DNA from: Candidatus Latescibacterota bacterium
GTDB taxonomy: Bacteria > Latescibacterota > UBA2968 > GCA-2709665
Length of the DNA stretch: 64,000 nucleotides
NCBI GenBank assembly: GCA_965116875.1
Contig: OZ220733.1
Span: 192,001-256,000, forward strand
Direction: 5' to 3'
The notes beneath the pieces were generated by a model that worked only from the letters and a program-made list of their open reading frames with translations, ran no database searches and had not been told where the DNA came from. Of the stretch, positions 29,618 to 63,545 are shown piece by piece. The first letter of the stretch is position 1. The number at the start of each line of letters is the position of its first letter. The position numbers and the translations under genes were made by a program.

Positions 29618-30256
29618 TTATTCAAAAGAAATTCCGACGCGAGCGGGGAAGAGCTGTGTGCTACCCCGCTCTCCCGAGGTAAATCCGACTTCGAACCGTC
29701 CTTCAACAAAGAGATGTACCCGGTCCGTCATCCGGATGTCGATCCCCGCGCCCGCGTTAATTGCAAATCCTGTCCCTGATTGCCCGGGCACCTCTATCTC
29801 CACGCCGCCAATCTCGGTACCCTGGATATCCACTTCCGAATACGACAGGATCCCGATCCCGCCAACCGCATACGGTACCGCCCGTACATCCACGTCGTCC
29901 GAATCGATCGCCTTCGTATATTTCATACTGGCGAATGCGCTGAAGAGGTGTTTTTCTCCACCTGACGTGGCGATCAACACTTCGAGCGCTTCGTTTTCCG
30001 CCTTGAATTTGCCTTCATCCAGTGCGAAACGGGCGTAACCGAACCTGCCCTGGACGGCCACGCTGGGGTGAATGAAATACTCGACGCCGGCGCCTGCACC
30101 GATACCCGGAAACCAGAATTCCGATACGGAAATGGATGCTGGCGCGGCGATTCCCGCCGTAACAAAATAGATCGGCTTCTGTTGCGCTTCCGCGTCGCCG
30201 CCCCCTCCGCCGGCCAGCAACTGTGCTGCAAGAAAAATCGACAACAATCGCGTCAT
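29618..30256 (-). CDS. Small outer-membrane beta-barrel protein (OmpA/OmpW-like)
   Basis: Signal peptide (AEA), PYAVGGIG, NAGAGID, LFVEGRF, terminal GISFE. Confidence 0.82.
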   Translation of the reverse strand: MTRLLSIFLAAQLLAGGGGGDAEAQQKPIYFVTAGIAAPASISVSEFWFPGIGAGAGVEYFIHPSVAVQGRFGYARFALDEGKFKAENEALEVLIATSGGEKHLFSAFASMKYTKAIDSDDVDVRAVPYAVGGIGILSYSEVDIQGTEIGGVEIEVPGQSGTGFAINAGAGIDIRMTDRVHLFVEGRFEVGFTSGERGSTQLFPARVGISFE

Positions 30257-30295
30257 ATTATTTCTCCTTTTTCGATATGACTGCGGCGGAAAGGC

Positions 30296-30320
30296 GGGCA
30301 CCCACAAGGGGCGCCCCTAC
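30296..30320 (-). repeat. GTAG-type REP
   Basis: Reverse complement GTAGGGGCGCCCCTTGTGGGTGCCC. Confidence 0.75.
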
Positions 30321-35100: not shown

Positions 35101-35658
35101 CACGGTCATCATCGCCTTCTCAACGCCCGAGAGAGAGCCGTTGGGCCCATTGCGCGGATCCCCGTTCCGTGCGGATTCCCAAACAACGTCGAGGTATCCG
35201 AACTCGACTTCCCCCGGACGCCGGACCACCGTGCCGTTGACCATCACCTCCCAGACCTGGCTGTCCACCATCGGCACCGCCGCCTGACCCAGCCCGGAGA
35301 GACGATAGTCCCGCAACGGGCGGTCCTTGTAGAACAGCCGCCTCCCGTCCGCGGTCCAGCCCAATTGTCCCGGCGGGCCCGGAAAGGCGCCCAGTTTGTG
35401 CTGGTTTCCTGCCGTATCCGCGGACCAGATCTCGGTCAGAGCCGCCTGCCCGTTTTCGTAGGAAGCTGTCCAGATCCGCCGGTTATCGGACTCTGCCTGG
35501 CCCGGCATCGCGACTCCCGCCAGGAACCACCAGGCAGTGAATACACGCAATGCAATTGGACCGAAGTCTGTTTTTCCTGGGCCCCGCACGACCGGCTCCT
35601 CCCCGAATTTTCGGGGTCTGGTGTGACGCGAGGAATAACCAATTTTAATGGCCATCAT
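32131..35658 (-). CDS. Exported TPR + GWxTD-domain protein (paralog 1)
   Basis: Signal-like segment, TPR array, FW..HDPD.TT.INE...EHYRRV.YA, PWDRRGEVYIRFGEPD, WEVWVY, two C-terminal Ig-like blocks; start may be GTG 35589. Confidence 0.85.
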   Translation of the reverse strand: MMAIKIGYSSRHTRPRKFGEEPVVRGPGKTDFGPIALRVFTAWWFLAGVAMPGQAESDNRRIWTASYENGQAALTEIWSADTAGNQHKLGAFPGPPGQLGWTADGRRLFYKDRPLRDYRLSGLGQAAVPMVDSQVWEVMVNGTVVRRPGEVEFGYLDVVWESARNGDPRNGPNGSLSGVEKAMMTVKMAYAALHRWDFRQAQRLYRDAAQQFEALGREHLLYSKPAMAYAKMLAGRSRMAASEGARWVGRENLSAIGEMIREYRRLHNGNSPVNLQVLMASARAGGLDEAEERILKQVFRSPEDREQRTVSYFYRSGAADGEAMVISPYHRGRLLELVRHGDGFDVVDRAAGKVQVDSLLDVGSRVLETAPAASVPVLQVVTLMAPGSARGHSRLGYAYLKSRNPDAALRSFERAVRLDHRLSEAYNGLGLVYEKRPKARYDAIRFYTKALQYNRDYLEARFNIARLRRSLREHDAKYDIEKVIDIDPTYAPAYLLLGEWYEVHEEDFERAALLYARYMTLKPEDPEGRKRLAAVYLRSRNYERIVNLLTDYVHENPDETGVMAVLAQACVQLGRLEWADRYFREYLQAATPHEQALYRDPVLLMSGEEREAYEQAHGSDRVELVKRFWSAHDPDLTTTINERLLEHYRRVWYALGAYSNGKQPWDRRGEVYIRFGEPDYRSTSDMKNYNQSLKVQRVRERIARQMYGQAALQMTFMGGPVYAVRSLKANLSGGANLGDGFAADRQVADLSIADRNTEAARVVSGGQNQRTGITFESGITADNEVSDASLELLRFENVQMNEGALAVGDTRNDFAFKAVTSQDDASMVPWEVWVYTDVNGGIEITFTDEHMRGEFDYAPPPMDVRIPMQQLARFNQFNPRSVAKQASLVTPDYYKPPENKLPLEFYYDLANFREDDPGAGSVLEVYFGAPYTLGKYSRDDDETEMFLERSVALNNPRTGAVYRRQGNLVFRGGGDLTGMRGGFVPDLVGLYVPPGTYRMEVQVRDRLSGRQGRYRQEVVIDNYDREFLQLSELQLAYSVAESDEAGKFRKGGLHVIPIPTRTFGRNQGVFVYYEIYHLRRDEFGQTRYKVGYTIRPKGVQGRKARGVVSQLVRVLTGKKQELAVGYEQIGNSESEEVYMELDLKSTKPGQYILEIDVTDLNSGLTSNRETGFYVQ

Positions 35659-36404: not shown

Positions 36405-38372
36405 CTACTGGCGCGCCAACAACCGAATTCGGCGACGGGCTTCGGATAGCGCCTTTGGATCGCCCCGCCATTGCTTCAGAAACGCGCGGTAGGCCGCGAT
36501 CGCATCCTCCGACTGTCTCAGGTCCTCAAGCACCGTACCCAGGTTGAAAAACGCCTTTACGTCGCCCAGCGCCGCGGACCTGCGATAGGCCGCCGCGGCC
36601 TCCTCCGGCTTGCCCGTCTTCTCAAGGGCCACACCGAGGTTGAAGTGAGCCTCGCTATCCTTCGGCAGCAGGACAGCCGCCTGCCTGAATCCTTCGGCGG
36701 CTATCGCCGGTTTGCCGGCGCGCATGGCCGTCACGCCCAGATTCATCCATGCCTCTGCATATTGCGGGTCCAGACCCACGGCCTTCCGATACGCCGCGAC
36801 CGCCGGTCCAAAGGAACCTTTCACGCCGTACGCGTTGCCCAGGTTGTTATAGGTCATGGCCTCTTCCCGGATGGACAGCGCCCGTCGAAAGGCCAGAATT
36901 GCCTGATCCATCAGTCCCCGCTCGGCATGCACCTGACCCACTGCCTGGTGCATCTTGGCGCTCTCCGGGTATGCGCTGGCTGCACTCGAAAACAGGCTGA
37001 GTTCGTCTCTCCAATCTTCGTTTCGCGCCACCGTACGCGCGGCATACCCGATGCATACGAGACCCGCCGCGACAACGACGCCGAACCCGAACCTCCGGTA
37101 CAGCCACTCTGTTCCGATCCCGGCCATCGCGAATACACCGAGCACGGGGATATACAGGAACCGTTCCTGGACCATCGAGTTCAGCAGCACAAGGATCTGC
37201 GACACCCCCAAATAGGGAACCCAGAAAAGCGCTCCACAGAAAAACAGATTCGGCCACCTTTCCAGCGACCGCACCCACAACCACAGTCCCGAAAGCCCCA
37301 ACGCCAGTCCCGCAAACACGTCGGGCGCCAAAAGTGAATGGGCAACCGGAATCGCATTGTACGAGTAGTCCACGGAAAGCCGCCACGGCAAAATGAGAAG
37401 CATTGCATAGTGCCAGAAGATCCTCCCGGCGGTCAGAATGCGTGCCTCAACCGGTGCGCCATAGAGCGGATTCACCAGTTCCGTCATCCCGCCGGGTGTA
37501 AAGCCGACCCCCGCCGCGGTGTTGCGCACAACCAGACAGATCGCGAAACCGCCCGCGAAGCCCAGCCACCGTGGCCATCTTGTCCGGCAGACGTACAGAA
37601 TGCTACTGAAAACCCCCTCCCCCCGCGGTTCTCCCCCCGATCGGGCCGGATCCGACGTAGACGGACCTCTCCTTGGACCATTCTCGTCCGATGAATTCCC
37701 GTCCCTTGCGCGCCCCATCCCAACCGCAAGGTCATATACGACAACCAGGCCCAACAGCGCGAGTGCGCTCTCCTTGCTGAGCAATCCAAAGAAGAAAGCG
37801 ACGAGGGAGAGGAGATAGTCCCACCGTGAACCGGATCGACGCATGTAAAACAACAGGCCCGTCAGCAAAAAAGCGCCGGCGAGCAGGTCGGACCGGCCGA
37901 ACGTCACGCCCGCGGCCACTTCCGAGTGGATCGGATGTACGGCAAACAGCAGGCCTGCGAGCCCCGCCGCAAAACGGCTCAGGCCCACGCGCCTGCACAC
38001 CATCCACGCCAGCAGGCTGCAACACACGTGAAGAAGCAGGTTGGTCAGATGAAACCGAAACGGGCTAATGCCTCCAAGGGCGTCCAGCAGAAACGTCAGC
38101 ACCGTCAGGGGACGGTATTGCCCGGTTTCGTTTCCTGGATAACCCGCCCAGTAGTGGGTGGTGAATACGCTCCCGAAATCCATCCGCTCCACGATCCAGC
38201 TTCGCACAATGAGAAACTGGTCGTCGTAAACCAGCCCGTTGTCCAGGGCGTTGGCATAAACCGCAAACGCCGCGACGCCCACCAGAACGGGCCACGCCCA
38301 CGTGTACTTTCCATCCGCGCCGGCGGCCCTAAACGTAGGCGCCTTGTGTTTACGGGAATTGCGTTTCGCCAT
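36405..38372 (-). CDS. TMTC-like (DUF1736) GT-C protein O-mannosyltransferase homolog with TPRs
   Basis: YDD, YW.G....YRPLT, HPIHSE..AG..GRSDLL, SKE, P.RLS.DYS, ERFLY.P, RN.DW, C-terminal TPRs. Confidence 0.88.
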   Translation of the reverse strand: MAKRNSRKHKAPTFRAAGADGKYTWAWPVLVGVAAFAVYANALDNGLVYDDQFLIVRSWIVERMDFGSVFTTHYWAGYPGNETGQYRPLTVLTFLLDALGGISPFRFHLTNLLLHVCCSLLAWMVCRRVGLSRFAAGLAGLLFAVHPIHSEVAAGVTFGRSDLLAGAFLLTGLLFYMRRSGSRWDYLLSLVAFFFGLLSKESALALLGLVVVYDLAVGMGRARDGNSSDENGPRRGPSTSDPARSGGEPRGEGVFSSILYVCRTRWPRWLGFAGGFAICLVVRNTAAGVGFTPGGMTELVNPLYGAPVEARILTAGRIFWHYAMLLILPWRLSVDYSYNAIPVAHSLLAPDVFAGLALGLSGLWLWVRSLERWPNLFFCGALFWVPYLGVSQILVLLNSMVQERFLYIPVLGVFAMAGIGTEWLYRRFGFGVVVAAGLVCIGYAARTVARNEDWRDELSLFSSAASAYPESAKMHQAVGQVHAERGLMDQAILAFRRALSIREEAMTYNNLGNAYGVKGSFGPAVAAYRKAVGLDPQYAEAWMNLGVTAMRAGKPAIAAEGFRQAAVLLPKDSEAHFNLGVALEKTGKPEEAAAAYRRSAALGDVKAFFNLGTVLEDLRQSEDAIAAYRAFLKQWRGDPKALSEARRRIRLLARQ

Positions 38373-38514
38373 GTGTTCTTTCAATTCACCCGGGCGCCCC
38401 TACAACGTCAGGACCCGTTATCGGGAGTCAACGAGAATCGATGAGTTTGCACAGATCAGGCGTCATGCGAAATAGGGTCGTTGGGCTGGTACCTTCATAG
38501 CATCGAGCAAAATG

Positions 38515-38562
38515 AAAAAAGAACGGGCGGCGTCCGGGCTCAGAGTCCCGGTCGCCGCCCGT
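38515..38562 (-). terminator. Intrinsic terminator of the TonB receptor-PorV operon
   Basis: ACGGGCGGCG/CGCCGCCCGT stem followed by TCTTTTTT on the minus strand. Confidence 0.75.
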
Positions 38563-38632
38563 CGGTTCATACGCCGACAAAGCGCCGGATTACGTCAGAT
38601 TCGATGGTCTCCAACGCCTTGAAAAGCCAACG

Positions 38633-39625
38633 TTAGAACGTGCCTCCCACGGAGACGCGAATCGGTGGATCGAACATAACGACACCGTCGTTCTTCTGCA
38701 ACAGCGATACCGCTACGTCCGCAGTGACCGTGCGTCCCCCGAACGTCTGCTTCAGCCCGGCGCCCACCGCGATGCTCTCGAGGTCGTAGTTCCACTTCCA
38801 ACCGGCGCGCAACGCGAGCGCATTCTGCAGCCACAACTCGGCGCCGAAGTGCCACCGCTGCTCGAAGTCCACGAAGAACGCGCTCTCCACCGAGGCGGTG
38901 AGGTAGGACGGATCGCCCTTTTCGCCGTATACTTCGGCAGCCACGCCGATATTATAGACGAGCGGCAACAGGTATGCCCGGTCGCCCGATTTGCGGTCAG
39001 GACCGAAATTCTTGAACGCCATTGCAATACGAAGGCTTCTGAAGCCCGTATAGAAGAAACTGCCCACGTCCACCGTGAAGCCCGTGGTCTTTACCGTGTA
39101 GAGCTTCTCCTGGACGTAATTCGCCTTGGCGCTGAACGAGAACTTGTCGGTGAACTTGATCGCATACAGCAGACCGACCGAGATATTGTGTACGACCACG
39201 TCCTGCCCGGTTCCGTTGGGCTGATAGATCGTGGTTTCCTTCGACGGCTTCGGGTTGTGGGACACAACGGTCAACCCCAACACCTCGCCCCTGGCGGAAC
39301 GCGTATTCCAGACAGCAGACGCCGAATAGAGCTGGGTGTCGAGCAGGAAGCGCGTCCAGTTCAACTGGTAGGCCACGCGTTCCACGTGTACGAGCCCCGC
39401 GCCGTTCCAGAAGATCGCGTTGATGTCGTCCGCTACCGCGGTATACGCGTCGCCCATAGCCACCGCGCGGGCGCCCTGGCCGATCTTGAGGAACTGCATC
39501 CCGGAGATATTGACTTTCTTGACACCGTACTCACCGGTCACCCCGCCCCACTTCACGGCCAAAGCCGGTGAAGCGGCAAGCAGCAGGGCCAAGACCGACG
39601 CAATGATTAGCATGCTTCTTTTCAC
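38633..39625 (-). CDS. PorV/PorQ family (FadL-like) outer-membrane barrel
   Basis: Signal peptide, FLKIG.GARA.AMGDAY.AVADD..AIFWN.AGL plug motif, terminal F. Confidence 0.9.
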   Translation of the reverse strand: MKRSMLIIASVLALLLAASPALAVKWGGVTGEYGVKKVNISGMQFLKIGQGARAVAMGDAYTAVADDINAIFWNGAGLVHVERVAYQLNWTRFLLDTQLYSASAVWNTRSARGEVLGLTVVSHNPKPSKETTIYQPNGTGQDVVVHNISVGLLYAIKFTDKFSFSAKANYVQEKLYTVKTTGFTVDVGSFFYTGFRSLRIAMAFKNFGPDRKSGDRAYLLPLVYNIGVAAEVYGEKGDPSYLTASVESAFFVDFEQRWHFGAELWLQNALALRAGWKWNYDLESIAVGAGLKQTFGGRTVTADVAVSLLQKNDGVVMFDPPIRVSVGGTF

Positions 39626-39650
39626 GTCATTTCCTCCTAGTTTGAGCCCG

Positions 39651-42122
39651 CTACTTGATCAGCACGAAGCTGCCTTTTCGGGTCTCTCCGCCGGACACAA
39701 CGACAAAATAGTACAGACCGGTCTGCACTTCGCCGGCGATATTGAACGTGATCTGCCGAAACTCGGTCTCACCCTTGGTGAGCGGGGTCCGGTCCGTGGT
39801 TTCAACGCGGTCGCCTGAGGCCGAGTAAATGTGAATGATCGCGTCTGAGGTCAGGCCCACGATGCGAAGGTTGCGGGAGTTGGGATACTGGTGCACGCCG
39901 TCAACGTAGTACGGGTTCGGCACGATGAGCACCTCATCCGGGAGGCCCGACAACAGGGCCTGGAACGGCTTGCGGTTGTCCCCGTCGTAGGTCCTGGCCG
40001 TGGAGGGGCCCCATCCACTTTCATACCCCCTCTTGATATTGGCCTGCACGCGCGCGCTGGGGATGTCGTCTATGGTCATCCCGCTGTTCCACGTGTACGA
40101 CTCCACGCCCCTGGCATACGGGCGGGCGGAGTAGAAGTAGGAAAAGCCTGCCGTGGTCTCCAGGTCCTCGTATTCATAGACGCCGTCGGCATTGATGCCC
40201 CATTCGCCCCGGGGCAGTCCCGCCGGATTGGTGGAAGATCCGCTCGAACCGTTTTCGATGATCCCGTACAGCTCCCAGGGACCCCATGAAAACCACTCGG
40301 ACTTGTACAGCCTGACCCCGAGGATATCCTGCTCGCCCGTATACGGGTTCACAGCGGACTCGGATTCCCTGCCCCACCGGATCAATTGCTTGGCCCTGGT
40401 GGAAGAGGTAAGGTTGTCGGGCGAAATGTACGCCTCGGTGGGCGAGGTGGGCACCTGGTAGTTGTTGTCATACACCCAATGGGCCAACTTCAGATTCTCC
40501 AGGGCGGCCTTCTCGCCGTCCGTCTTTATCTTCTGGATCTTGTTCTCGGGGCTGTCGCTGGACCGGTCCCACTTGATCAGCCCGATGTCCTGCTCGTTGG
40601 CGGGAATCGGCGCGAGCAAGGAAGGGTGCCCGGCGCCCCAGGAGAACACGAGCTTCACGGACTCATCCACGCCCACGTTGTAGGGCCCGTAAACCGTCAT
40701 GTCGTGGAACACCTTGCGCGTGGAAATGTCGCCCTCGTCCGGATTGGCCTGAAAACCCGTCGTTGTTATGACGCTGGCCAACTGCTCGGCGCTGTGCGTG
40801 GTATAGGTGGGATCGTCGAAGTCACCCGTGGAACGCGCCAGCCACCACTGGAACGAACGCGGCTGCATGTCTTCCCCGGGCTGCACGAATTTCCCGCGGT
40901 CGGCTTCGTTGAACGAGAACTTGCCCGCGTCGTCGGCATAGGCGAGCGGCGCCATGAAATAGGTGCTCGGCGCTCTTGGCTGGCCTTCCGTCTGCAGAAT
41001 GTTGTAGTTGGAGGGCACGATCGCCTTGAAGAACGGATCGCCCGTGTCGTCGTGCGAGGAAAACGGGTTGTCCGAGTCTCTCCGGATGACCGCGCGCATA
41101 TCCTCGCCCGCGAACGCGCCGTTCTGCGAGAATGCATTCGGATAGCCGTCGGCTTCCGTAAACCACAACGTATCGTCCATGCCGCGGGCATTGGACGCGT
41201 AGAAGTTCCACCCGAACTCCTCGAGAATGCCCATTGCCGTCATGGCGGCCACGTTCTTGAACGCGATGTAAAGGTTGTTGATGGGCCCCGGCGCTTCACC
41301 CACGCCGTCGCCATCGAAGTCGCCGATGTTCTTGAAGGTGAGGTCCACGATGTAGAAGTCGTCGAAATCCGGGTTGGACCAACTGTAGACGCGCCGCTGC
41401 ATCAGCAAACCGTTCTGCTTGTCGATCCACTGGGCGATGATCGTCTCTTCCGGAAGGTTCACGTCCACCAGGTTGTGCGCGCCCAGGTTGTAGTTGGCGA
41501 TGTGGGCCGGCGGTGTGCTAACCGGGTCCCAGTTGGCGCCGTAGATGCTGCCCCGATCGTCTTTGGTGACCCCCGGCCAGTAATTGGAGAGGGCACCCTG
41601 ATTATCCAGTTCCCCGGGAGAAATAGCGCTGTTCGGCGTCTCGGCGAGCTCCTGCAGCGGGTTGGGCTGCCCCCAGCTTTCCTCGGGATTGCCCAAGGGA
41701 TCGTAGGGGAACGCCTGGTTGTGTTCCACGATCTGCAGATTCTCACGAGGTCCGGTTACCGTAACGGTACCGGCGTCGGCGTTCAGGATCCAGATGCCCT
41801 CGCCGCCCGAAACCTTGTAGTCGTTGTACATCTGCGACTTCTGGTTGGACGTGAACTGGGAGAGCACGGCGCCGAACGAACCCGGGCCGTTGCCGTTCCA
41901 CGGATAGGCGTTGCGCCGGTAGCCGCGCCCCCACTCCTGGTTTCCGCCCATGCCGCCGATGTTGTTGTAGCTGTTGGAAATCAGCGACCTGAGGTTGTAC
42001 CTGCTGGAAATATTGTCGGGAGTGGCCTGCGCATCGACCGGGACTGGCTGAAATACAACCGCAACCAGCGCAAGGCAGGCGACTGCAACCAGCCCCTTAC
42101 CAATGAAATTCAATCGTTTCAT
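39651..42122 (-). CDS. Exported surface protein with T9SS type A-like C-terminal sorting domain
   Basis: Sec signal (VDA-Q), Fn3-like segment, C-terminus VPNPY...IHIYS.SG...TGLYYFVV...KGSFVLIK. Confidence 0.82.
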   Translation of the reverse strand: MKRLNFIGKGLVAVACLALVAVVFQPVPVDAQATPDNISSRYNLRSLISNSYNNIGGMGGNQEWGRGYRRNAYPWNGNGPGSFGAVLSQFTSNQKSQMYNDYKVSGGEGIWILNADAGTVTVTGPRENLQIVEHNQAFPYDPLGNPEESWGQPNPLQELAETPNSAISPGELDNQGALSNYWPGVTKDDRGSIYGANWDPVSTPPAHIANYNLGAHNLVDVNLPEETIIAQWIDKQNGLLMQRRVYSWSNPDFDDFYIVDLTFKNIGDFDGDGVGEAPGPINNLYIAFKNVAAMTAMGILEEFGWNFYASNARGMDDTLWFTEADGYPNAFSQNGAFAGEDMRAVIRRDSDNPFSSHDDTGDPFFKAIVPSNYNILQTEGQPRAPSTYFMAPLAYADDAGKFSFNEADRGKFVQPGEDMQPRSFQWWLARSTGDFDDPTYTTHSAEQLASVITTTGFQANPDEGDISTRKVFHDMTVYGPYNVGVDESVKLVFSWGAGHPSLLAPIPANEQDIGLIKWDRSSDSPENKIQKIKTDGEKAALENLKLAHWVYDNNYQVPTSPTEAYISPDNLTSSTRAKQLIRWGRESESAVNPYTGEQDILGVRLYKSEWFSWGPWELYGIIENGSSGSSTNPAGLPRGEWGINADGVYEYEDLETTAGFSYFYSARPYARGVESYTWNSGMTIDDIPSARVQANIKRGYESGWGPSTARTYDGDNRKPFQALLSGLPDEVLIVPNPYYVDGVHQYPNSRNLRIVGLTSDAIIHIYSASGDRVETTDRTPLTKGETEFRQITFNIAGEVQTGLYYFVVVSGGETRKGSFVLIK

Positions 42123-42161
42123 ATCCTTCTCTGCCTCCATTCGAAAGCACTGCGGAACAGA

Positions 42162-42191
42162 CGCGCCGGAAGCGAAACTGCTTCCGGCGCG
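42162..42191. other. Intercistronic 12-bp perfect stem-loop
   Basis: CGCGCCGGAAGC / GCTTCCGGCGCG just after the TonB receptor stop, no poly-T tail. Confidence 0.7.
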
Positions 42192-42199
42192 CCATTTCC

Positions 42200-45100
42200 T
42201 TACCAGTTAACGCGCAGCCCGAACTGGGCAAGACGCGGCGAATGCGCGTAAGACCGATCCCGGCTGTCGCCGTAATTCAGATAGTTCTTGTCGTCCGGGG
42301 TCGGCCCGTCCAGTCCGATGTACGTCCAGAGGTTTCTGTTCGACGGGCTGGTGCGGTCCTTCTGGTTGAAAACGTTGCGGATATCGGCGAAGAGGGTGGG
42401 CTGCACCCTGCCGGTCACGTTGAACGTCTTTTCGACGGCCAGGTCGGTACGGGAATCCAGCGCGAGGTCGCGGTAATACCGGTTGCCGCCTTCAGGCGGG
42501 GCGTAGTTGAAGATACCGCCCGTCTGGATACGGGAGGTGACGTTCAGACGGAGATTCTTGAGTACGGAACCGATAAAGGAATGGCCGAACTCGAAATCGT
42601 CCGGGAACGACGCCAGGAGCGAGAAACTTCCGAAATTCCGCCGGTCGCCGCTCTTTGGACGGAAGAACAGCGTGGTATAGCTGCCCGAGTTGATCTTGAC
42701 CGAACAGTTCTGGCCGCAGTTCCCAAGGGCGGGGTTGTCGACCGGCCGGAGGCCGTCCCACACGCCCGTGCCCAATTGGCCGCCCTTCGCCCGCGCATTG
42801 TCGTGGAAGTTCTGCCCCTGCTGCGCGTATTTGACGAGGTCGTCGCCCGTCAGCCGGCGAGGCGCCTCGCTGCCGTCCGGAAGCGCATCCCAGTAAATCC
42901 AGAAATTGGGAACGGTAATGCCGCGGTCCGTAAATGCGTTGGTTGTGGAAAGATGGACCACCGTTGCCGAGTCCATATACACGTTGCGGATCACGTTACC
43001 CAGCTTGCCCGTGGTGACCTGCGACCACTGGTAGTTGTAGGAAACGTTGAACGAGAAGTTGTGCGAGAAGGACTTGCGCATGGACAGTTCCACGCCGCGA
43101 GTGTCGCCGTACGCGCCGTTGTCCAGGGTCCGGGAATAGGGAATCCAGAAGTCCCTGGGTCCGACCCACGTCTCGTTGGGATACGATGTGAAGTGGTCCA
43201 CCTCGCTCTTGTAATACGCCGTTAAGGTGGCCGTGTAGTCGCTCACGAAGTTCCAGTCAGCGCCCACCTCGAAGGCCGTAGTCTTGGCGGGTTGCAGCAG
43301 GTGCAGCCCGTTCTGGCCCGAATACGTGGTGCGGAAGTTGTTCATCCGCTCGGTGGCGTCGATCCGGCCGTTCTCGTTCACGTCACGGTCGCCGGCGTCG
43401 CCGGAGGTCCAGTAGTCCTCGCCGAAATAATACCAGAGGTCCGCCCACTGGAGGAACACGCCCGTGGAGAAGCGCATCTGCGACCGCTCGGTGATCGGAT
43501 GGGAAACACCGATCCGCGGGCTGAACTTCACGTGCCAGGGCGCGTCCGTGACCCACAGAGAGCCTTCCTGATACGCCCAGTCGCGTGCGCGGGTATAGTA
43601 GCGGAACATGGAACTCCCGCGGTACGCGCCGAAGGTCAGCTGGCGAGAGTTCGGGTTGAACGTATCCAGGCGGACGCCCAGGTTCACGATCATCCCCTGG
43701 AATTCCATTTTATCCTGGACGTAGGCGTTGAGGAAGAAGGGTTTGACCTTCTCGCCCATCTGACCCTCGTTCATGATCACCCGCAGGTTCCGGGCGGCGG
43801 GGGTGGTGTCGTACCGCAGGATCATCGTGATGGCGCTGGTCTGGTACTCGACCCCCGCCTTCATGAAGTTACCCTTGGTGATCTGGGACGACAGGTCGAC
43901 CTTGGCGCCGATGCGCTGCCGGTCGTACTGGCCGTAACGCGCGGCCTGCCGGCCGATGTTGAACCAGCCCGCCTGGTCCCGGTAGATATCACCGGTCACT
44001 TCATGGGTACCGCTGAGGGTATCCATCTTCGAACGGGAATGCGAAACCCGCACTTCGTAGAACGTCCTTGGGGACAGCGTGTGCGTAAACACCGCGTACT
44101 GCAACTCTTCCCTGAGGTCGTGCAGACCGGCCGCCGACCACTTCTCGGGCAGGAACAGGTTGCGCCCGGAGCCGCGCACCATCGCGCCGCCGCCGCTGCC
44201 GTGACGCCCGCCGAAGAGGTCCGGATTGCCGTTCGAATACCAGTCCCAACCCAGGTACATCCCCCCCACTTTCAACTTGAGGTTGGCGCTCGGCTTGATG
44301 GTGATGCTTCCCGAAACGTTGATATTGCCCGGATCGTCCTGGAAGCTTCCGCGATCATTGTAGAAGCCGATGCGCTCGGCGCGAGGCGTTACGGCCGCAT
44401 AGCGTTCGTGCTTGGCCGTTGCCACGAAGGACGCCCTGTCGCCGATCGGGCCGGACAGGTTGCCTTCGACGCCGAAGCCGGTCCACTCCGTGTAGTTCGT
44501 ACGGACGTGAATCAGTTCGCCCGCGACCTCTTCGAAAATGGGATGGTTGATCTTGTCCGAAAGGTCCGGATATTTCTCGTTGGCCCAGACGGGGTTGTCC
44601 CATTGCACCTTGTCCTGGTGCTGCGGGGAGTCGTAGACGTTTTCGCCCCAGTGCTTCTTGCTGGCGGGCTCGTAGCGGAACTCGCCCCAGCCGTTCACCT
44701 CGCCGCCGCCTTCCTTGGTGATGATCTGGACCACGCCGCCCTGGGCATTGCCGTATTCAGCGGGGGTTACGCCCGTGAGCACGGACAATTCCTGGATGGC
44801 GCCCCGGTTCACCTGGCGGAAGCGTCCGCCTCGCCCGCGGCCGTCGTTGTGGTTCATCCGGACGCCGTCCACCACGTACGCGACGTCGCTGGCGTACCAG
44901 CCCCTGTCGACGTAGGCGCCGCGAATCCGGTTGGACCCGTCAACCGCCACGCCCGGCTGCAACTGCAGCAACTCGGACGTCCTGCGCGCGGCCGCCAGGT
45001 TCCGCTCGGTCTCTTCGAGCGTCACCGTGTATTTGCTGGTGGTCTTGTCGGGCTCCACCAGCGGACGGCCAGCCGTGACCACCAACTCACCCAGTTCGAG

Positions 45101-45433
45101 GGCGGTCTCTTTCAAATTGTAATTGATGGTGGTGGTATGGTCCGTCGATACGTCCACGCCCGTCTGCGACACGGTTTCGTAACCGATGAGGGACGCTGAA
45201 AGGGTATAGACACCGGGCGGGATATTGATGATGACGTAATACCCGTCGGCATCGGCTGTGGAACCCAGATTGAGTTCCTTGATCACCACGTTGGCGCCGG
45301 GCAGGACTTCGCCGGCCTGGTCGCGTACCACGCCGTTGATTTTGCCCGTAACGCCTGCCTGCAGTTCGCCGGCAACAAAACCGACGGCCGCAACGGCAAC
45401 TGCGATTCCGAAAAACAGAAGCTTACGCTTCAT
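42200..45433 (-). CDS. TonB-dependent receptor with N-terminal CarboxypepD_reg-like domain
   Basis: GKI.G.V.D..GE.LPGANV, DADGYY.I.NIPPG.Y, plug LQPGV...IRG...YVVDG...AEYGNAQGGVVQIITKEG, C-terminal PR..QFGLRVNW. Confidence 0.92.
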   Translation of the reverse strand: MKRKLLFFGIAVAVAAVGFVAGELQAGVTGKINGVVRDQAGEVLPGANVVIKELNLGSTADADGYYVIINIPPGVYTLSASLIGYETVSQTGVDVSTDHTTTINYNLKETALELGELVVTAGRPLVEPDKTTSKYTVTLEETERNLAAARRTSELLQLQPGVAVDGSNRIRGAYVDRGWYASDVAYVVDGVRMNHNDGRGRGGRFRQVNRGAIQELSVLTGVTPAEYGNAQGGVVQIITKEGGGEVNGWGEFRYEPASKKHWGENVYDSPQHQDKVQWDNPVWANEKYPDLSDKINHPIFEEVAGELIHVRTNYTEWTGFGVEGNLSGPIGDRASFVATAKHERYAAVTPRAERIGFYNDRGSFQDDPGNINVSGSITIKPSANLKLKVGGMYLGWDWYSNGNPDLFGGRHGSGGGAMVRGSGRNLFLPEKWSAAGLHDLREELQYAVFTHTLSPRTFYEVRVSHSRSKMDTLSGTHEVTGDIYRDQAGWFNIGRQAARYGQYDRQRIGAKVDLSSQITKGNFMKAGVEYQTSAITMILRYDTTPAARNLRVIMNEGQMGEKVKPFFLNAYVQDKMEFQGMIVNLGVRLDTFNPNSRQLTFGAYRGSSMFRYYTRARDWAYQEGSLWVTDAPWHVKFSPRIGVSHPITERSQMRFSTGVFLQWADLWYYFGEDYWTSGDAGDRDVNENGRIDATERMNNFRTTYSGQNGLHLLQPAKTTAFEVGADWNFVSDYTATLTAYYKSEVDHFTSYPNETWVGPRDFWIPYSRTLDNGAYGDTRGVELSMRKSFSHNFSFNVSYNYQWSQVTTGKLGNVIRNVYMDSATVVHLSTTNAFTDRGITVPNFWIYWDALPDGSEAPRRLTGDDLVKYAQQGQNFHDNARAKGGQLGTGVWDGLRPVDNPALGNCGQNCSVKINSGSYTTLFFRPKSGDRRNFGSFSLLASFPDDFEFGHSFIGSVLKNLRLNVTSRIQTGGIFNYAPPEGGNRYYRDLALDSRTDLAVEKTFNVTGRVQPTLFADIRNVFNQKDRTSPSNRNLWTYIGLDGPTPDDKNYLNYGDSRDRSYAHSPRLAQFGLRVNW

Positions 45434-45476
45434 TGTGATACCTCCTCCGTTGAGTTGTTACCCCGGCTGCGTCAAA

Positions 45477-46196
45477 TTAACGCCAGAAGTAAAACTTCAT
45501 CTGCACGCCGACGTCGACCATGTGAATCGGTCGCACCTTCTCCAGCCCGTAGAACAGCATATTGCGCAACTCCCCCACAACGAAATTGTAGCGCGCGCGC
45601 AGGTCGATGGCCAGGTTCTGGGTGACGAAACCCTCGACACCGGCGCCGGCATTGGCGCCAATGGTGTACCGCTGATCTACCTGGTCTTCCATGACGAAGT
45701 CCAGATCTATGGGATCATTCGTCTGGCGGGAATAAACCAGGTTGCTGTTGATCGCGTAATAGCGATAGAGACCGCCGCCAACCAGAAGATAATACCTGTA
45801 GTCCCTGGCTTTGAACCCGTGGGTGGCGTTCTCTTCGCCGACGAAAAGCAGCCCGTTCACGATCAGGTTGTTCCACGTGATTTCGGACTTGCCGTTCGGG
45901 TGCGGGTACGACTGCTGGTCGATCGGGTATTCCCAGAGATCGGATGCCGGTTTTCCGTTTTCAAACTTCGAGTAATTGTACTCGATTTCAATAACGGTGC
46001 GTTGGCTGGCTACGTAGCTCAACGTGGCGCCGTATTTTCCCGTGGCGTCCCAGCGTTCTCCAAGCCGATGCATCGGGATATTGTAATCGGCGATCCCGCC
46101 AATCCCCCATCTACCTTCCTGGGCCAATGCGCTGTCTGACAGACCCGCTGCCGCCAGCACAAAAACAGCCAGAAAAGCAATACGCACAACTTTCAT
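45477..46196 (-). CDS. Small outer-membrane beta-barrel protein
   Basis: Signal peptide (ALA-Q), alternating strands, GANAGAGVE, terminal KFYFW. Confidence 0.8.
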   Translation of the reverse strand: MKVVRIAFLAVFVLAAAGLSDSALAQEGRWGIGGIADYNIPMHRLGERWDATGKYGATLSYVASQRTVIEIEYNYSKFENGKPASDLWEYPIDQQSYPHPNGKSEITWNNLIVNGLLFVGEENATHGFKARDYRYYLLVGGGLYRYYAINSNLVYSRQTNDPIDLDFVMEDQVDQRYTIGANAGAGVEGFVTQNLAIDLRARYNFVVGELRNMLFYGLEKVRPIHMVDVGVQMKFYFWR

Positions 46197-46538
46197 CTAC
46201 TCACCTCCCCATCTGAGAGTGAATGATGCGGAAACCCCCCTCCGCCCATCACTACGTCCCACGAACGGAATTTGCGAAGCGGACACCTCTAATCTCGATA
46301 GACAATCCTCCTTTCGTCAATTCAGGAAACATGGATGCACAGGATGAATTCAGAACCTGCTTGAGACTTGCTTGCACGGGTACATAAAAGGGCGCAATGC
46401 TTCATGATAGGATCATTGCGATTGCGCCCCGGTGTTCGCCAAACATTGGTGTGGAGTGCAGAAGAAACATTATAGAAACCGATTCCACGTGATGTTTTCA
46501 ATATGGCGCACTTCGCCTTTTTTTTACTGATCCCATAA

Positions 46539-46567
46539 AATTTAGTTGGCGCAAATGAATTTGTCAA
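46539..46567 (-). promoter_or_regulatory. sigma70-like promoter of the barrel-TonB receptor-cargo-PorV operon
   Basis: TTGACA (46567-46562), 17-bp spacer, TAAATT (46544-46539), upstream A-tract. Confidence 0.6.
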
Positions 46568-46759
46568 GTTTTTTTTGTCGGCCGGTTTTGGAAGCGTTTT
46601 GAATGCCCTGCTTTTATTCGAACAGCACCTGACGGCGTTTTGGGAAGCGGCCGGCGAAACCCGGAACTTTGTTCAGCCCCAATATAAACAGGGACGAATC
46701 GCAAATCAACCGCGATTCGTCCCTGTAAGCAAGAACATTTTGACCGGAGGCCGTGTGTT

Positions 46760-49198
46760 CTATTTCTCCAGGATCTGAAAACGACCCTCGCGAACCGTCT
46801 GCCGATCGCTCACGAGATCCTTTACGGTCATTTTCACCCGATAGCGCCCGGGTCTGCCCTTACGCAGATCCAGCTCGACGTAGTCGGACTCGTCCGGCGA
46901 CGTGCCCACCTGCCTGTAGCTGACCGAGACCATTTCGCCCGATCCCTTCCGGGCAAGCGTTTTCAGTTTCTTCCGCCCGCGGCGCACTTCGTACCCCACC
47001 TCATAACGGGTGTTTCCGAAGGAATCCCTCGTCAGATTATATATTTCGAAATATACGTAAACCGGTTCGCCCGAGCGGAAAGCCCGCGACGGCGCCGCGG
47101 CGATTTCCCATCGCCCCCGGACCGATTTCGAATCGGCGTCCGGGCCCGCCTCGACGACCCGGTATGCCACCTGAAGGTCGCTGAGGAGCAACTCCCCGCT
47201 ATCGTAGTCGGGTATTTCGACCTCCTGGTGATACGCCTGAAGCCGGTTCGTATTCATCCTGGACATCTGCAACGCCAGCCTGTAAGCGCCGGGCGCCGCC
47301 GTCAGGTCGACCCGGTCCACGGCCAGCAATCCCGTCCCCCGTGACGACGGCGATATCCGCAGGTCCAGCCGGTCGCGGGTTTTCCGCACCTCCTCGGTCC
47401 GGTCTTCGATCAACGCGATGCGCCTCTCCAGCGTCACGGTCGTGTCGCGGTCGCCGTCCACAAGGACGTTGTCCAGCGGCAGTCCCAGATTCAACTGAAG
47501 GTCCGCTTCACCGTTGCGGCCGCGGAATGAAAGCGCTTCATAGTAAAACTCCATGGGATCCAGATGGGACAGATCGTACCGCTCCGGCAGATCCTTCGAG
47601 ATTCTCGCCACGCGGGCGCCCGGGGCCAGGTTGGGCAACCGCATCATCAGCCGGCGCATGGGACCCATGCGCTGCATGGAGAGTTCGTCCAGATCGTACC
47701 CGTCCGGCGTGGGCTCCGGCGCGAAATCGTAGATGCCGCTGTACAACTCGTCCGTAAACACGACCTCCAGACCGTTCTCGATGTCCGCATAGACCCAGAC
47801 CTCCCAACCCACCTTCGAGTAGTCCATGCTCGTGGTGACCGGCTTGTAGAACGTGAGTCCCACGTCGGTTTCCTCAGGTCCGCCCAGCGGCTTGCTGTTG
47901 GTCCCCCACTCCGACTGGGAAAGCCTTTTTTCGGCCGAACGGTCGGAGCGGATGGGGTACACCGGGCCGATGAACGTCATGTCCATTCCGCGCCGTCCGT
48001 AGAGTTGAAACGCCAGCCTTTCCTGCACGCGCTGCACCTTGATGGGCACCTGCGCGTTGACTTGCTTCCAACTGGACTTCCAGTCGGGCTCTCCGTATCG
48101 GACGAACACGCGGCCGCGGGCGTCGAAGGGCCATGCGATTTCGCCATAGAGCGTCATTGCACGCCAGACGCGGCGGTAATGCTCCACGCGCCGCATCGCG
48201 CCGCCGCTCGTCTGGAACGGGTCGCGCTTCAGCCAGAAGCCCCTCAGAAATGCCTCACGATGTTCCGGCGGTGTGTTCTGGTATGCCGCAACATCCTCCG
48301 GCCCACCGACGTTGGAGATATCGTAATACGCCGACCGCTCCTTTACGGGGAGAAGCGAGATGTACCTTTCGAACACACCGAGGGCCTCTTCGTGATCCCC
48401 CCACGCCGCCAATACCTGGGCCTCGAGTGGCAACCCGCGCTCGCGGCCCATCAGCGCGGTCAGTTGAAGCACTTCGTCGTACCGCTCGATTTTCAGAAGG
48501 TGCACCGCGAAGTCGAACGCCGAGTCCTCGTCGTCGGGTTCGTGCGAAAGGAACTCCCGGAAATACCGGATGGCGTCCGGCGTGTTTCCCAGCGAAAGAT
48601 AATAGTCGGCCAGAAGCATATACGAAGGCGCATGGTCGGGGTCGTGACGGAGCGCCGCCCGCGCCGAGGCAAGCACTTCCTCCTTCTTGCCCATTTTCAA
48701 GTGGGCGCGTCCCATCAGCTGATGGGCGTCCGCGTAGGTGGAATCGATGCGAATGGCGCGTTCGAGGTTCTTCAGCGCCCGCCTGGGATTATTCATCAGC
48801 TCCAGATAGACCCGTCCCAGTCCGTACCTCGCGGCAACGAGCGTTGAATCCTGAACCAGAGCGTCTCTGAAACGCGCGCGCGCGCGCTGGGCGTCCTTCG
48901 CCTCCAAATAGAGCATTCCGATCCGTACCCGCAGCAGCGCAGGATTGGGATATGCATCCAGGGCGCCCTCCAGCTTTCCGATCGCCATCCTGATCGAATC
49001 GGGATCGTCCGATTTCATGCTGCGGATGTAGACGCCGTCGATTTCACCGGGCGCCAGCGCGTCGGCTCGGGCGGATATCGCCCACCATCCATTAACGGCA
49101 AGGACCAAAACAGACAAAAGACCAAGGCACACCAGACTCGCGCGGTCATTTTCAATAAATAACATATTCTTAAGACTCGTGTAATGAACTCGATTCAT
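46760..49198 (-). CDS. Exported TPR + GWxTD-domain protein (paralog 2)
   Basis: Hydrophobic leader, TPRs, FWLKRDP, EHYRRV, PFDARGRVFVRYGEPD, WEVWVY, YFEIYNL..D.FGNTRY; start uncertain (49198 or 49165). Confidence 0.85.
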   Translation of the reverse strand: MNRVHYTSLKNMLFIENDRASLVCLGLLSVLVLAVNGWWAISARADALAPGEIDGVYIRSMKSDDPDSIRMAIGKLEGALDAYPNPALLRVRIGMLYLEAKDAQRARARFRDALVQDSTLVAARYGLGRVYLELMNNPRRALKNLERAIRIDSTYADAHQLMGRAHLKMGKKEEVLASARAALRHDPDHAPSYMLLADYYLSLGNTPDAIRYFREFLSHEPDDEDSAFDFAVHLLKIERYDEVLQLTALMGRERGLPLEAQVLAAWGDHEEALGVFERYISLLPVKERSAYYDISNVGGPEDVAAYQNTPPEHREAFLRGFWLKRDPFQTSGGAMRRVEHYRRVWRAMTLYGEIAWPFDARGRVFVRYGEPDWKSSWKQVNAQVPIKVQRVQERLAFQLYGRRGMDMTFIGPVYPIRSDRSAEKRLSQSEWGTNSKPLGGPEETDVGLTFYKPVTTSMDYSKVGWEVWVYADIENGLEVVFTDELYSGIYDFAPEPTPDGYDLDELSMQRMGPMRRLMMRLPNLAPGARVARISKDLPERYDLSHLDPMEFYYEALSFRGRNGEADLQLNLGLPLDNVLVDGDRDTTVTLERRIALIEDRTEEVRKTRDRLDLRISPSSRGTGLLAVDRVDLTAAPGAYRLALQMSRMNTNRLQAYHQEVEIPDYDSGELLLSDLQVAYRVVEAGPDADSKSVRGRWEIAAAPSRAFRSGEPVYVYFEIYNLTRDSFGNTRYEVGYEVRRGRKKLKTLARKGSGEMVSVSYRQVGTSPDESDYVELDLRKGRPGRYRVKMTVKDLVSDRQTVREGRFQILEK

Positions 49199-49545
49199 TA
49201 TACCTGTGAGGCCAAGCTGACGATGGCTCCGCTCGAATGTGTCCTTCGCGGGTTTCTGCCGAAAGAACAATCGAGTGGACGGGAGATTCTTAGACTGCGC
49301 TTAGAATCTCAAGTCGGCAACCAGCTACGTGAGATCCTCATTTGACGATCGTAGAATGCGGCTGTAACCACTTTCTCAAAGGAATTTAACGCCCCTTGCC
49401 ACGCTGACGGCCCACCGCCTAAACAGATCATGTTGAATTTGCAGAAAATATATACAAGTGGAAAAATAAGGCAATAGTCAGTCTGCCTCCCCAAGCAAAT
49501 GACCTTGAACCATTTTTTAAAGAATCTGGTTCTGCTACTTGGATC

Positions 49546-49900
49546 CCCCCGCGGCCTGGATAGCGCCTTGAGCGTCCCCTCACGACGCGCACGACGCCAT
49601 TGGGTCAACTGCGAGGAATACAACCCTTCGTGACGCAGCAACGCACCGACTTCACCAGGGGCCCGGCAAGCGTCCGCCTCTTCCAGAATGCGAAGCTTGT
49701 ACCGGGCGGTGAACCGGCGACGCTTCGCACGCGCCGGCACCTCCGGATCCGGCCTCGTGTTCCTGGTGGTCCCGTGCGGGACCTCCACAACCAGAGACCC
49801 CTTGCCGCCGTTGTCTCCAACATAGGTTCTTGAATTCACTTCGTGCTCTCATCCCCGCCCAATATACGACGACATTGAACTCGGACAGAAAACTGTCTCA
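49546..49900 (-). mobile_element. Truncated IS3-family element (left end + orfA fragment)
   Basis: Terminus TGAGACAG at 49900; [38 protein letters not shown]; no orfB integrase. Confidence 0.8.
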
Positions 49901-50503
49901 CTCTATATTGGCACGTACGGAAGAAAGCATCCGTCGTAGGGTCAACGCAAAGACGTGCATACCAGGATTGTCTGGAAGTTCGATGGCAGCGAGTGGCATG
50001 CGTGTGTCAATAGGCACTCGTTGTATCCAGATGCCATAGTCAACGCCGAGCCGATCTGTATAAACGTGACGAGTGGGACAGTGAACTCCTGAGCACCTTA
50101 CCGCGACCCTTTCTCCGTATTGAAGGCGGTTGCCCTTATGCCACGAGCTCAGCCCGACAAGAGAGCTAACCCTACACCCATCAGCAGTGATAAACGAAAC
50201 GTTGTCCTCGAAGTCTCGTTCAGCTGCCCCAAGAACGTATAATGTGTCGTACGTGTCTTCAGGAATCGCGATATGTTGACCTTCCATAGAGACGTTGTTG
50301 TTCATGCCGTCTCTCTTATCGGGAAATCGAAACACAATACCATCGCAATCGAACAGCGAATTCGAACTGGGCAGGTCCTCTTCCGGGTAAGTTTGGCCAA
50401 TGCCGTTGAAGTCACCGTCCGTACGATCGGAATCTGAAGACACGGCATCACTATTGTAGTAACGGCGGAGATCTATCATATGATATACGTCAGATTTGCC
50501 CAT
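49898..50503 (-). CDS. Hypothetical beta-sandwich protein
   Basis: IDL..YYN.D......DGDF.G.G..YP.E.LP, F.FP......NNV...GQ.I; resembles accessory modules of some glycoside hydrolases (from memory, unverified). Confidence 0.65.
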   Translation of the reverse strand: MGKSDVYHMIDLRRYYNSDAVSSDSDRTDGDFNGIGQTYPEEDLPSSNSLFDCDGIVFRFPDKRDGMNNNVSMEGQHIAIPEDTYDTLYVLGAAERDFEDNVSFITADGCRVSSLVGLSSWHKGNRLQYGERVAVRCSGVHCPTRHVYTDRLGVDYGIWIQRVPIDTRMPLAAIELPDNPGMHVFALTLRRMLSSVRANIE

Positions 50504-50800
50504 ATTTGCCTCTGGATAGGTTCTTGTTCATGGATTGTTGGAAGTTACAGGGGTTATTCACTCGGATGGCGACAGATTCTCGAACCGTTATTAACTTGAT
50601 ATTTATTGAAACTGTCCAATGTTCTCTCTACGAACTTCTCGCACCCATCGGAAAAGGAGAGAACCACCGGACGCGGTCGTCCTCGGAAGCCCATTGTGTT
50701 GTATGACCAGGTCCGTGAGGAATTTTTCTCACTTTAAAGTTCTCGTACGTTGCCGCACCGTCTCGTGTGAAGGGCTATGATTGTCGTGCTGAGCGCCTAA

Positions 50801-58785: not shown

Positions 58786-58787
58786 CT

Positions 58788-61922: not shown

Positions 61923-61934
61923 AAGCGCCAATCC

Positions 61935-63092: not shown

Positions 63093-63545
63093 TGTTTCGA
63101 CACCCGTACGCGTCCCATAGCGGTTAACCTTTGCAGACAAAGAAGGACACGGTTTTCATAGGTTCAATGTCAGTCAAAAACCATTGATCGAGAGCCGCGA
63201 ATGTGTCAAGTGGGAAGTTTCGCGACGATAATGTAACGGCGCATCGAACCCTTATTCGTCACTCTTCAGCAAACCAGAATCGGACTCTTTCAGAGATTTA
63301 AGTGCGAAATGAGAACCAAGAAGCCTGCAGTCCCAAGTACACCTGCGATATTTAGTCCGAATTGAGAAATAACACTTCCGACGTATCGAAAAGTTGATGG
63401 CAATCCCAATCAGCCGTCTCTTTGACCAGATTCGCAGTATTAGAAAAAAGTCCCCAAATACTCCAATAGTCGAGCATTCGAAGACAATGGGACGTTCAAC
63501 TTGCGGATTTATATGGTACTAATTCATCCTCCGGTCAGTCTTAAA

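Follow-up and report, generated by a model that had tools for sequence, protein, structure and literature searches.

A conserved four-gene outer-membrane unit of Latescibacterota that combines a TonB-dependent receptor with a putative sorting-tail protein and a PorV/PorQ-family barrel

Introduction

The SusC/SusD pair is the textbook system for the capture of large nutrients in Bacteroidota, and its SusD partner is a lipoprotein. Here we describe a four-gene block in a 64,000-nucleotide stretch of DNA from a Candidatus Latescibacterota bacterium (contig OZ220733.1 of assembly GCA_965116875.1, positions 192,001 to 256,000 of the forward strand; the whole stretch is called the window, and coordinates are counted from its first letter). 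The block encodes a small outer-membrane beta-barrel (gene 1), a TonB-dependent receptor (gene 2), a large exported protein with a putative C-terminal type IX secretion system (T9SS) sorting domain (gene 3, referred to as the cargo), and a barrel of the PorV/PorQ family (gene 4). Like SusC/SusD and RagA/RagB of Bacteroidota, it joins a receptor with a CarboxypepD_reg-like extension, a plug, and an unusually large barrel to an adjacent gene for a large partner that is predicted to reach the surface, and several receptor-family paralogs occur per genome. Unlike in SusC/SusD, the receptor reaches only 84 bits on the SusC/RagA model (cutoff 368), the partner, probably a beta-rich protein that contains an Fn3-like domain and a putative sorting tail, carries neither a SusD domain nor a lipobox, and the unit encodes two extra barrels.

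A second relevant system is the PorZ-PorQ/PorU-PorV attachment complex of Porphyromonas gingivalis. In the available excerpt of PMC8545088, the C-terminal domain of PorZ is described as resembling canonical sorting tails and yet remaining uncleaved by PorU, and PorZ and PorU as anchored on the surface via the barrels PorV and PorQ. Similarly, the Latescibacterota locus encodes a putative surface protein of about 800 amino acids, whose putative type A-class C-terminal beta-sandwich resembles the uncleaved PorZ tail, together with a PorV/PorQ-family barrel of about 330 amino acids. It differs in that the resemblance is confined to the tail, the cargo body giving no match to the PorZ model, in that the barrel scores below the cutoffs for PorQ (220) and PorV (250), and in that the cargo and barrel genes are adjacent and lie inside a receptor operon. 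A dedicated barrel gene beside a cargo gene is also found for type B cargo proteins and their PorP/SprF-like shuttles in Flavobacterium johnsoniae (PMC12618676, excerpt). The tail in the unit described here is probably type A-class (among 67 family members, the type A model TIGR04183 matched 45 and the type B model 1), and its barrel belongs to the PorV/PorQ family.

In Proteobacteria, Slam barrels (type XI secretion) and TbpB/TbpA pairs likewise bring together a surface-delivering barrel, a co-receptor, and the TonB-dependent receptor of that co-receptor. The Slam barrel family (DUF560) is unrelated to the one found here, its co-receptors are lipoproteins, and a sorting tail is absent. Oar of Myxococcus xanthus carries a CarboxypepD_reg domain at the N-terminus of a large TonB-dependent barrel and is not known to have a PorV-family partner. 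As a TonB-dependent transporter, Oar is tied to the outer-membrane passage of a protein, PopC (PMC6434023, excerpt); the Oar-like barrel model PF25183 did not match the receptor of the window. Literature searches retrieved no description of a gene cluster composed of a receptor, a tail protein, and a PorV-family barrel. The unit is presented as a new conserved combination of known parts, with one unannotated body domain.

Results

Open reading frame (ORF) calling on the window placed four co-oriented ORFs on the minus strand at 38633-46196, in agreement with an earlier note on this DNA. Gene 1 (45477..46196) encodes 239 amino acids with a signal peptide ending in ALA-QE, gene 2 (42200..45433) the 1077-residue receptor with its CarboxypepD_reg and Plug domains, gene 3 (39651..42140) the 829-residue cargo, and gene 4 (38633..39625, GTG start) the 330-residue barrel. 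A genome scan yielded 37 loci, and genes were counted by tblastn and ORF calling. The loci derive from metagenome-assembled genomes (MAGs) labelled Latescibacterota or Latescibacteria, some Gemmatimonadota or Gemmatimonadetes, 'uncultured Gemmatimonas sp.' or 'uncultured bacterium'; the survey covered Latescibacterota-type MAGs and one Handelsmanbacteria MAG.

A PorV-family gene was found directly 3' of the cargo gene in 35 of the 36 loci with DNA beyond the cargo. The receptor gene directly preceded the cargo gene in all 35 loci reaching that far, and the small barrel gene preceded the receptor gene in 33 of 33. The complete set of four genes was present in 33 of the 37 loci, the remaining four being truncated by contig ends. 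In the Handelsmanbacteria MAG (Candidatus Handelsmaniibacteriota at NCBI), three genes carry the consecutive tags A3F84_25270, 25275, and 25280. Gene order was kept from 98% down to 27% cargo identity. The unit of locus L037 is the most divergent: its cargo is 27% identical to that of the window, its receptor 31%, its barrel 44%, and its small barrel 38%; for loci L016-L027 the corresponding values are 49-51%, 59-60%, 68-70%, and 50-56%. The synteny of receptor, cargo, and PorV-family gene, on which the earlier note had made its proposal depend, is conserved in the surveyed loci. The four-gene block is a conserved operon-like unit at the outer membrane, and the small barrel of gene 1 is its constant fourth member.

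Quick trees of the four proteins (16 loci) showed the same main clades. The earlier note had suggested paired phylogenies as a sign of co-divergence; the clades are indeed shared, but since the trees were built from orthologs of different genomes, they speak for descent as a block and not for co-evolution as such. In most chromosome-level assemblies one unit per genome was found. In one binned MAG, four units were found, some of them incomplete, whose cargo proteins share 58-68% identity; they may be paralogs or may stem from mixed populations.

The receptor matched CarbopepD_reg_2 with 71.5 bits in Pfam and Plug (PF07715) with 43.1 bits (cutoff 23.9), and the plug was matched in 11 of 11 orthologs. 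Ahead of the plug, at about residues 116-121, lies the motif ELVVTA, of which E116 and V119 are invariant in 11 orthologs. The motif resembles a TonB box, for which it is a candidate. A receptor profile matched the plugs of PfeA, YncD, and PqqU as well as a SusC N-terminal domain in the PDB; the receptor as a single sequence gave no PDB match. The plug is followed by a C-terminal barrel region of about 830 amino acids. At E≤0.1, this region was matched by no Pfam barrel model, either in the receptor itself or in 10 orthologs. Among distant relatives of residues 250-1077, matches to PF00593, PF25183, or PF14905 are present, and some of these proteins are named TonB-dependent receptor. On the SusC/RagA model TIGR04056 the receptor failed, with 84.3 bits against a cutoff of 368.25 and a match to model positions 2-207 only. 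Judged by these matches, the receptor is SusC-like in layout (extension, TonB-box-like motif, plug, large barrel) and lies outside the SusC/RagA subfamily. Three receptor relatives are encoded on a contig of 5,462,556 nt (P0319, P0324, and P0327) and three on a contig of 8,082,295 nt (P0323, P0339, and P0347), and both contigs carry two PorV-family relatives each.

The cargo gene probably starts at an ATG at position 42122, the conserved start by homolog alignment, and not at 42140. As read from the sequence and the alignment, its signal peptide begins with a basic N-region, continues with a hydrophobic core, and shows AQA-Q as the consensus site. The sole cysteine of the signal peptide is not conserved in 20 homologs, and there is no conserved lipobox cysteine, which indicates that the cargo is not a lipoprotein. 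The own sequence of the cargo matched no family in Pfam and NCBIfam and contained no SusD domain. The description of the third protein in the earlier note as Sec-exported and as neither a SusD nor a lipoprotein thus holds. The signal peptide is followed by an unannotated body of about 500 amino acids, in which residues 274-279 (DFDGDG) form a DxDxDG motif, then by an Fn3-like domain, and at about residues 731-829 by a putative C-terminal sorting domain of beta-sandwich type.

A deep search with a 20-homolog cargo profile against 1.84 billion cluster representatives, clustered at 50% identity, retrieved 1952 representatives at E≤1e-3, of which 533 reached E≤1e-10 and 59 reached E≤1e-30. When 35 distant relatives were scanned against Pfam (E≤0.001), 31 showed no family and 3 only weak tail-type matches; one relative, which matches the cargo profile in the tail alone, carries unrelated Ig-like domains. 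A comparison in the Atlas was made with the stored homologue P0021 in place of the window cargo. Look-alike clusters came from Gemmatimonadota, Bacteroidota, Ignavibacteriota, and Fidelibacterota and were all named 'hypothetical'; in one of them, Por_Secre_tail is present in 17% of the members. The N-terminal body had no usable named match in this look-alike search. The close cargo profile A1 found no match in the PDB at E≤10. The wide-family profile gave three meaningful matches, including 3mpc_A (Fn3-like, E=2.3e-6) and the Fn3 region of 5g56_A. Before residue 485, no residue other than the start methionine is at least 90% conserved in the wide family. By these searches, the cargo is a member of a large family without a Pfam or NCBIfam model, and it is probably beta-rich.

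The nature of the sorting domain was approached through 67 family members of 19-31% identity. At E≤0.1, TIGR04183 matched 45 of them, the PorZ model 37 with its C-terminal part, and the PorU model 27; the type B sorting-domain model matched a single one. Pfam assigned CHU_C to 20 of the same members, Por_Secre_tail to 12, FlgD_ig to 7, and fn3 to 3. Among 18 members scanned singly at E≤0.01, TIGR04183 was found in 10, and in 5 of these above the 23-bit cutoff. The residues matched by TIGR04183 in distant relatives are those matched by the cargo profile. The PorZ model NF052228 was matched in 9 of the 18, with 14-38 bits against a cutoff of 260 and always at positions 654-757 of 757, that is, in the PorZ tail; the window cargo gave no match to this whole-protein model. 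The wide-family profile matched residues 665-758 of PDB entry 5m11_A at E=2.6e-5, and no other T9SS C-terminal domain in the PDB was matched at E≤10. The entry is listed as 'Immunoreactive 84kD antigen PG93'; we take it to be PorZ, and at 758 residues it agrees in length with the PorZ model of 757 positions. In the close family, the tail has a mean identity of 55.8% to the 12 most distant rows, compared to 39.5-54.0% for the other regions, and the linker ahead of it is nearly invariant. Through the distant family members, a homology of the cargo C-terminal domain to T9SS type A sorting domains is supported.

Gene 4 passed the PorV/PorQ family model NF033709 with 138.2 bits (cutoff 90). It failed the subfamily models, with 64.1 against 220 for PorQ (NF033711), 45.5 against 250 for PorV (NF033710), and 40.5 against 325 for PorV2. 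A profile of 26 relatives matched the Flavobacterium johnsoniae PorV 6h3i_F in the PDB at E=2.3e-17, and relatives of gene 4 carry PF19572, PF03349, or PF03687. Its length of 330 amino acids is near that of the PorQ model (335). The gene begins 25 nt after the cargo stop in the window, and the gap is 13-63 nt in 33 loci. A PorV/PorQ-family barrel directly after the cargo was thus correctly predicted; its designation as a PorV holds at the family level, with the PorQ model scoring slightly above the PorV model and both far below cutoff. The GTG start is present in the window and in 33 of 35 orthologs, which is unusually constant for a non-ATG start.

For gene 1, both family matches were below cutoff (OMP_b-brl, E=0.0038; TIGR04565, 29.3 bits against 60), and the profile of its orthologs had no meaningful match in the PDB. 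The other OMP_b-brl gene of the window (29618-30307) was compared as a candidate paralog and found not to be paralogous.

A sigma-70-like promoter site, TTGACA-17-TAAATT with an A-tract 5' of it, was found by pattern scan at 46539..46567 on the minus strand, where the earlier note had placed the promoter. The region contains 4 promoter-like matches compared to 2.7 ± 1.5 in shuffles, so that the consensus match alone is not above chance. The A-tract and CTTGACA are, however, kept ahead of gene 1 both in close loci and in more distant ones, and a TTGACA lies at most 560 nt upstream of gene 1 in 27 of 34 sequences, giving leaders of 175-475 nt. A terminator-like hairpin of the preceding gene (46726-46688) lies upstream of the site. 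At the other end, an intrinsic terminator at 38515..38562 (minus strand) consists of a G+C hairpin (38562-38523) and a T-run, read from the sequence with the inner stem found by scan, as the note had it. The layout of one promoter, four genes, and one terminator stands, but a second strong hairpin inside the operon had been overlooked. This G+C-rich hairpin (42162..42191, minus strand; 13 pairs, -37 kcal/mol, without a U-tract) separates the receptor gene from the cargo gene. In 12 of 13 other loci examined, a strong hairpin likewise follows the receptor stop, although its sequence differs (L001, L010-L012, L016, L018, L020, L028-L030, L032, and L037), with energies of -28 to -85 kcal/mol. It may set the ratio of the receptor to the cargo and barrel, or it may protect an mRNA end.

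The 5' leader of about 340 nt (46197..46538, minus strand) ends in a hairpin. Its last approximately 110 nt are conserved in 11 aligned sequences, and the last approximately 30 nt fold into an invariant hairpin, in which UCACUCUC is paired with the gene 1 Shine-Dalgarno sequence GGGAGGUGA. The stability of the whole leader is no greater than that of shuffles (z = +0.53). An Rfam scan of 38300-46800 at E≤1 gave no match in the leader; its two weak matches fall at the terminator and do not come near the gathering scores. A riboswitch in the leader that might name the substrate was rejected, as there is no Rfam family and folding is no better than in shuffles.

Genes 2-4 have a G+C content at third codon positions of 0.83, 0.82, and 0.81, and gene 1 has one of 0.71, compared to 0.68-0.80 for 19 other window genes. 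The strong codon bias claimed earlier is by this measure modest, and the evidence for high expression consists of this modest shift and the conserved promoter.

The surroundings of the unit were searched for further sorting-domain proteins with a hidden Markov model built on the family tail; 6481 stop-to-stop ORFs, taken from 804 kb of DNA, were scanned. Besides cargo orthologs, two proteins were retrieved, both small secreted proteins encoded just upstream of the unit: L030:5090-5833 (Por_Secre_tail, 33.5 bits against 27; FlgD_ig passed) and L015:4210-5019 (FlgD_ig passed; weak cohesin match). Canonical type A tail proteins in these flanks make a general sorting pathway plausible. T9SS core families were absent from 39 flank ORFs of five diverse loci. 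The available text of PMC12611786 presents the SprA channel as restricted to the FCB superphylum and as missing only from Chlorobiota among the phyla tabulated, in a table that may not cover Latescibacterota; its supplementary text, as available, makes no mention of Latescibacterota. PMC11495043 and PMC4454575 contain nothing on type IX secretion in this phylum.

The L037 unit lies downstream of a gene for a 983-residue protein similar to PL17 alginate lyases (L037:11-2962; 9irq_A, E=1e-12; 8bdd_A, E=3.2e-7) and of a gene similar to ROK-family regulators of the NagC/Mlc type (L037:3817-5079). To judge from these similarities, the flank is a polysaccharide-utilisation-like setting; two further L037 flank proteins had no match in the PDB. 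Upstream genes depend on the clade and encode a GWxTD-TPR protein, a cohesin-like tail protein, a TolB-like propeller, a small tail protein, or a ROK-family protein. Downstream of the unit, the window and each of the 5 diverse loci scanned, L037 included, encode a GWxTD-domain protein (TIGR04514). Such proteins, mostly with TPR repeats, are located at 32131-35658 and 46760-49270 in the window and at L012:15514-19059, L016:16501-20280, L029:14959-18831, L030:13593-17201, and L037:12988-14445 elsewhere. A literature search for 'GWxTD' found no paper with that word. The GWxTD protein may be a fifth functional partner.

After the terminator of the unit, most related loci encode a TMTC/DUF1736-TPR protein. 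In the window it has 659 amino acids, a TMTC/DUF1736 match, and TPR repeats, is GT-C-type glycosyltransferase-like, and is encoded at 36405-38384. A second GT-C-like membrane protein (PTPS_related) is found at 27012-29546. Transposase genes (DDE_Tnp_1_4, with a weak HTH_Tnp_1 match nearby) occupy 49309-52197, where the G+C content drops from ~0.58-0.60 to ~0.52-0.55, and the stretch past them (55417-63140) contains two AcrB-type pump genes in tandem along with a membrane-fusion gene. Mobile or selfish genes are inserted beside the unit in L029, where a split TnpB follows the barrel gene (L029:13899-15049), and in L034.

Discussion

The reading that we prefer is that the unit serves as an outer-membrane uptake unit of Latescibacterota. 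The cargo would cross the outer membrane via a T9SS encoded elsewhere in the genome, and its C-terminal sorting domain would be retained instead of being cleaved off. The retained domain would dock on the gene 4 barrel in the way in which Porphyromonas gingivalis anchors PorZ on a barrel, and the cargo tethered in this way beside the receptor would act as a substrate-capture co-receptor or lid, with import driven by TonB. Glycans would be among the substrates. For this chain as a whole, from the PorZ-like docking of a retained tail and export by T9SS to the co-receptor role and glycan substrates, we estimate a probability of about 45%.

Evidence for this reading comes from the linkage of the four genes, from the tail and barrel matches, from the conservation of the tail and its linker, from the signs of uptake, and from the canonical tail proteins in the flanks. 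The cargo-barrel pair is likened to PorZ/PorQ because the wide-family profile matched the tail of 5m11, which we take to be PorZ, and because the PorZ tail is itself uncleaved and PorZ is barrel-anchored; in its sequence features, the pair looks like PorZ/PorQ set beside a SusC-like receptor. The earlier proposal that the barrel holds the cargo on the surface gains support from the same points, and the interpretation built on it is partly supported overall. Uptake is favored by the plug and TonB-box-like motif of the receptor, by the presence of several receptor paralogs per contig, and by the alginate-lyase-like and ROK-family neighbors in L037. Some units of the family probably take up glycans.

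Several observations weigh against this reading. The C-terminal domain of the window cargo, which the earlier note had called T9SS type A-like, failed all curated T9SS models on its own sequence, and the best match of its last 101 residues was FlgD_ig (E=0.0064); it is the distant relatives that passed TIGR04183 on the same residues. A narrow profile of the cargo-ortholog tails did not match PorZ in the PDB at E≤10, the sole match being FlgD (3osv_A, E=1.1). Aligned by hhalign with the canonical tail from L030, the ortholog-tail profile reached a probability of 11.7% (E=0.0025), with the motifs PNP, IY..G..V, and G.Y in register. The preference of gene 4 for PorQ over PorV consists of partial matches far below cutoff. 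As the earlier note had observed, the window ORFs scanned included no T9SS core family (sprA, gldK-N/porK-N, porU). The neighbors in the window are TPR, GT-C-like, and GWxTD envelope genes and not catabolic genes. With no residue before 485, start methionine excepted, conserved to at least 90% across the wide family, nothing in the body indicates a ligand, and the strong hairpin between the receptor and cargo genes implies that the amounts of the two proteins need not be equal. Finally, in L034 the last 1031 nt of the contig, after the cargo gene, contain an inverted PIN-type toxin-antitoxin pair (L034:4135-5017; identified from ORF translations) and no barrel gene.

Part of this evidence fits other explanations. 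The cargo might be an ordinary T9SS substrate with a private shuttle: the barrel would merely take it over from the translocon, a service that PorP/SprF-like proteins render to type B cargo, the tail would be removed, and the cargo, released or lipid-linked, would act as a free binding protein or enzyme whose products are imported by the receptor. Cognate shuttle genes beside cargo genes are established for type B tails in the available text of PMC12618676, some family members have type A tails above the TIGR04183 cutoff, and the synteny is equally compatible with a shuttle. We nevertheless regard this explanation as unlikely. The tail and linker are as conserved as the body, the only T9SS tail that the wide-family profile matched in the PDB is the uncleaved one of 5m11 (presumably PorZ) and not that of a cleaved cargo, and the lack of any residue before 485, start methionine excepted, with at least 90% conservation argues against an enzyme. 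Somewhat less probable still is an envelope or structural module, in which the four proteins, together with the TPR/GT-C-like and GWxTD neighbors, would build or maintain a surface layer or outer-membrane structure, and the plug-bearing barrel would not import a ligand captured by the cargo. The TMTC/DUF1736-TPR protein that follows the unit in most loci, the recurrent downstream GWxTD protein (5 of 5 diverse loci and the window), the single unit in most chromosome-level assemblies, and the conserved, strong-looking promoter would all suit such a module. On the other hand, the plug and TonB-box-like motif point to TonB-driven transport, single contigs carry several receptor-family paralogs, the L037 unit adjoins alginate-lyase-like and ROK-family genes, and a terminator separates the unit from the TPR gene.

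A further explanation turns the direction of transport around. The unit could be a self-contained, TonB-powered device for export and display, in which the receptor is the exit channel of the cargo and the PorQ-like barrel its landing site outside, without a separate T9SS/SprA translocon. Oar, which is needed for PopC secretion in Myxococcus according to the excerpt available (PMC6434023), offers a precedent, the scanned ORFs of the window gave no match to a T9SS core family, and receptor, cargo, and barrel are linked without exception where DNA reaches, save in L034. We consider this highly improbable, as these genomes also encode canonical type A tail proteins that are not paired with a receptor in this way, SprA is missing only from Chlorobiota among the tabulated phyla of its superphylum (with the reservation on that table given above; PMC12611786, excerpt), and the receptor lacks a match to the Oar-like model PF25183. 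That the four genes are mere neighbors without shared function is hardly credible in view of the synteny counts: order, orientation, and short spacing are kept at 27-50% cargo identity while the flanks differ.

If the uptake reading is true, other phyla of the same superphylum would capture nutrients via a secreted protein that is held by its uncleaved tail on a dedicated PorQ-like barrel, a possible alternative to the SusC/SusD nutrient-capture pair. Anchoring of the PorZ/PorQ type would then no longer be confined to one component of the secretion apparatus but would be a general means by which co-receptors are mounted. If the export reading were true instead, TonB-dependent transporters and type IX secretion would be tied together mechanistically and perhaps evolutionarily. 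A function for the cargo family, with its 1952 representatives, would annotate many genes of uncultured lineages.

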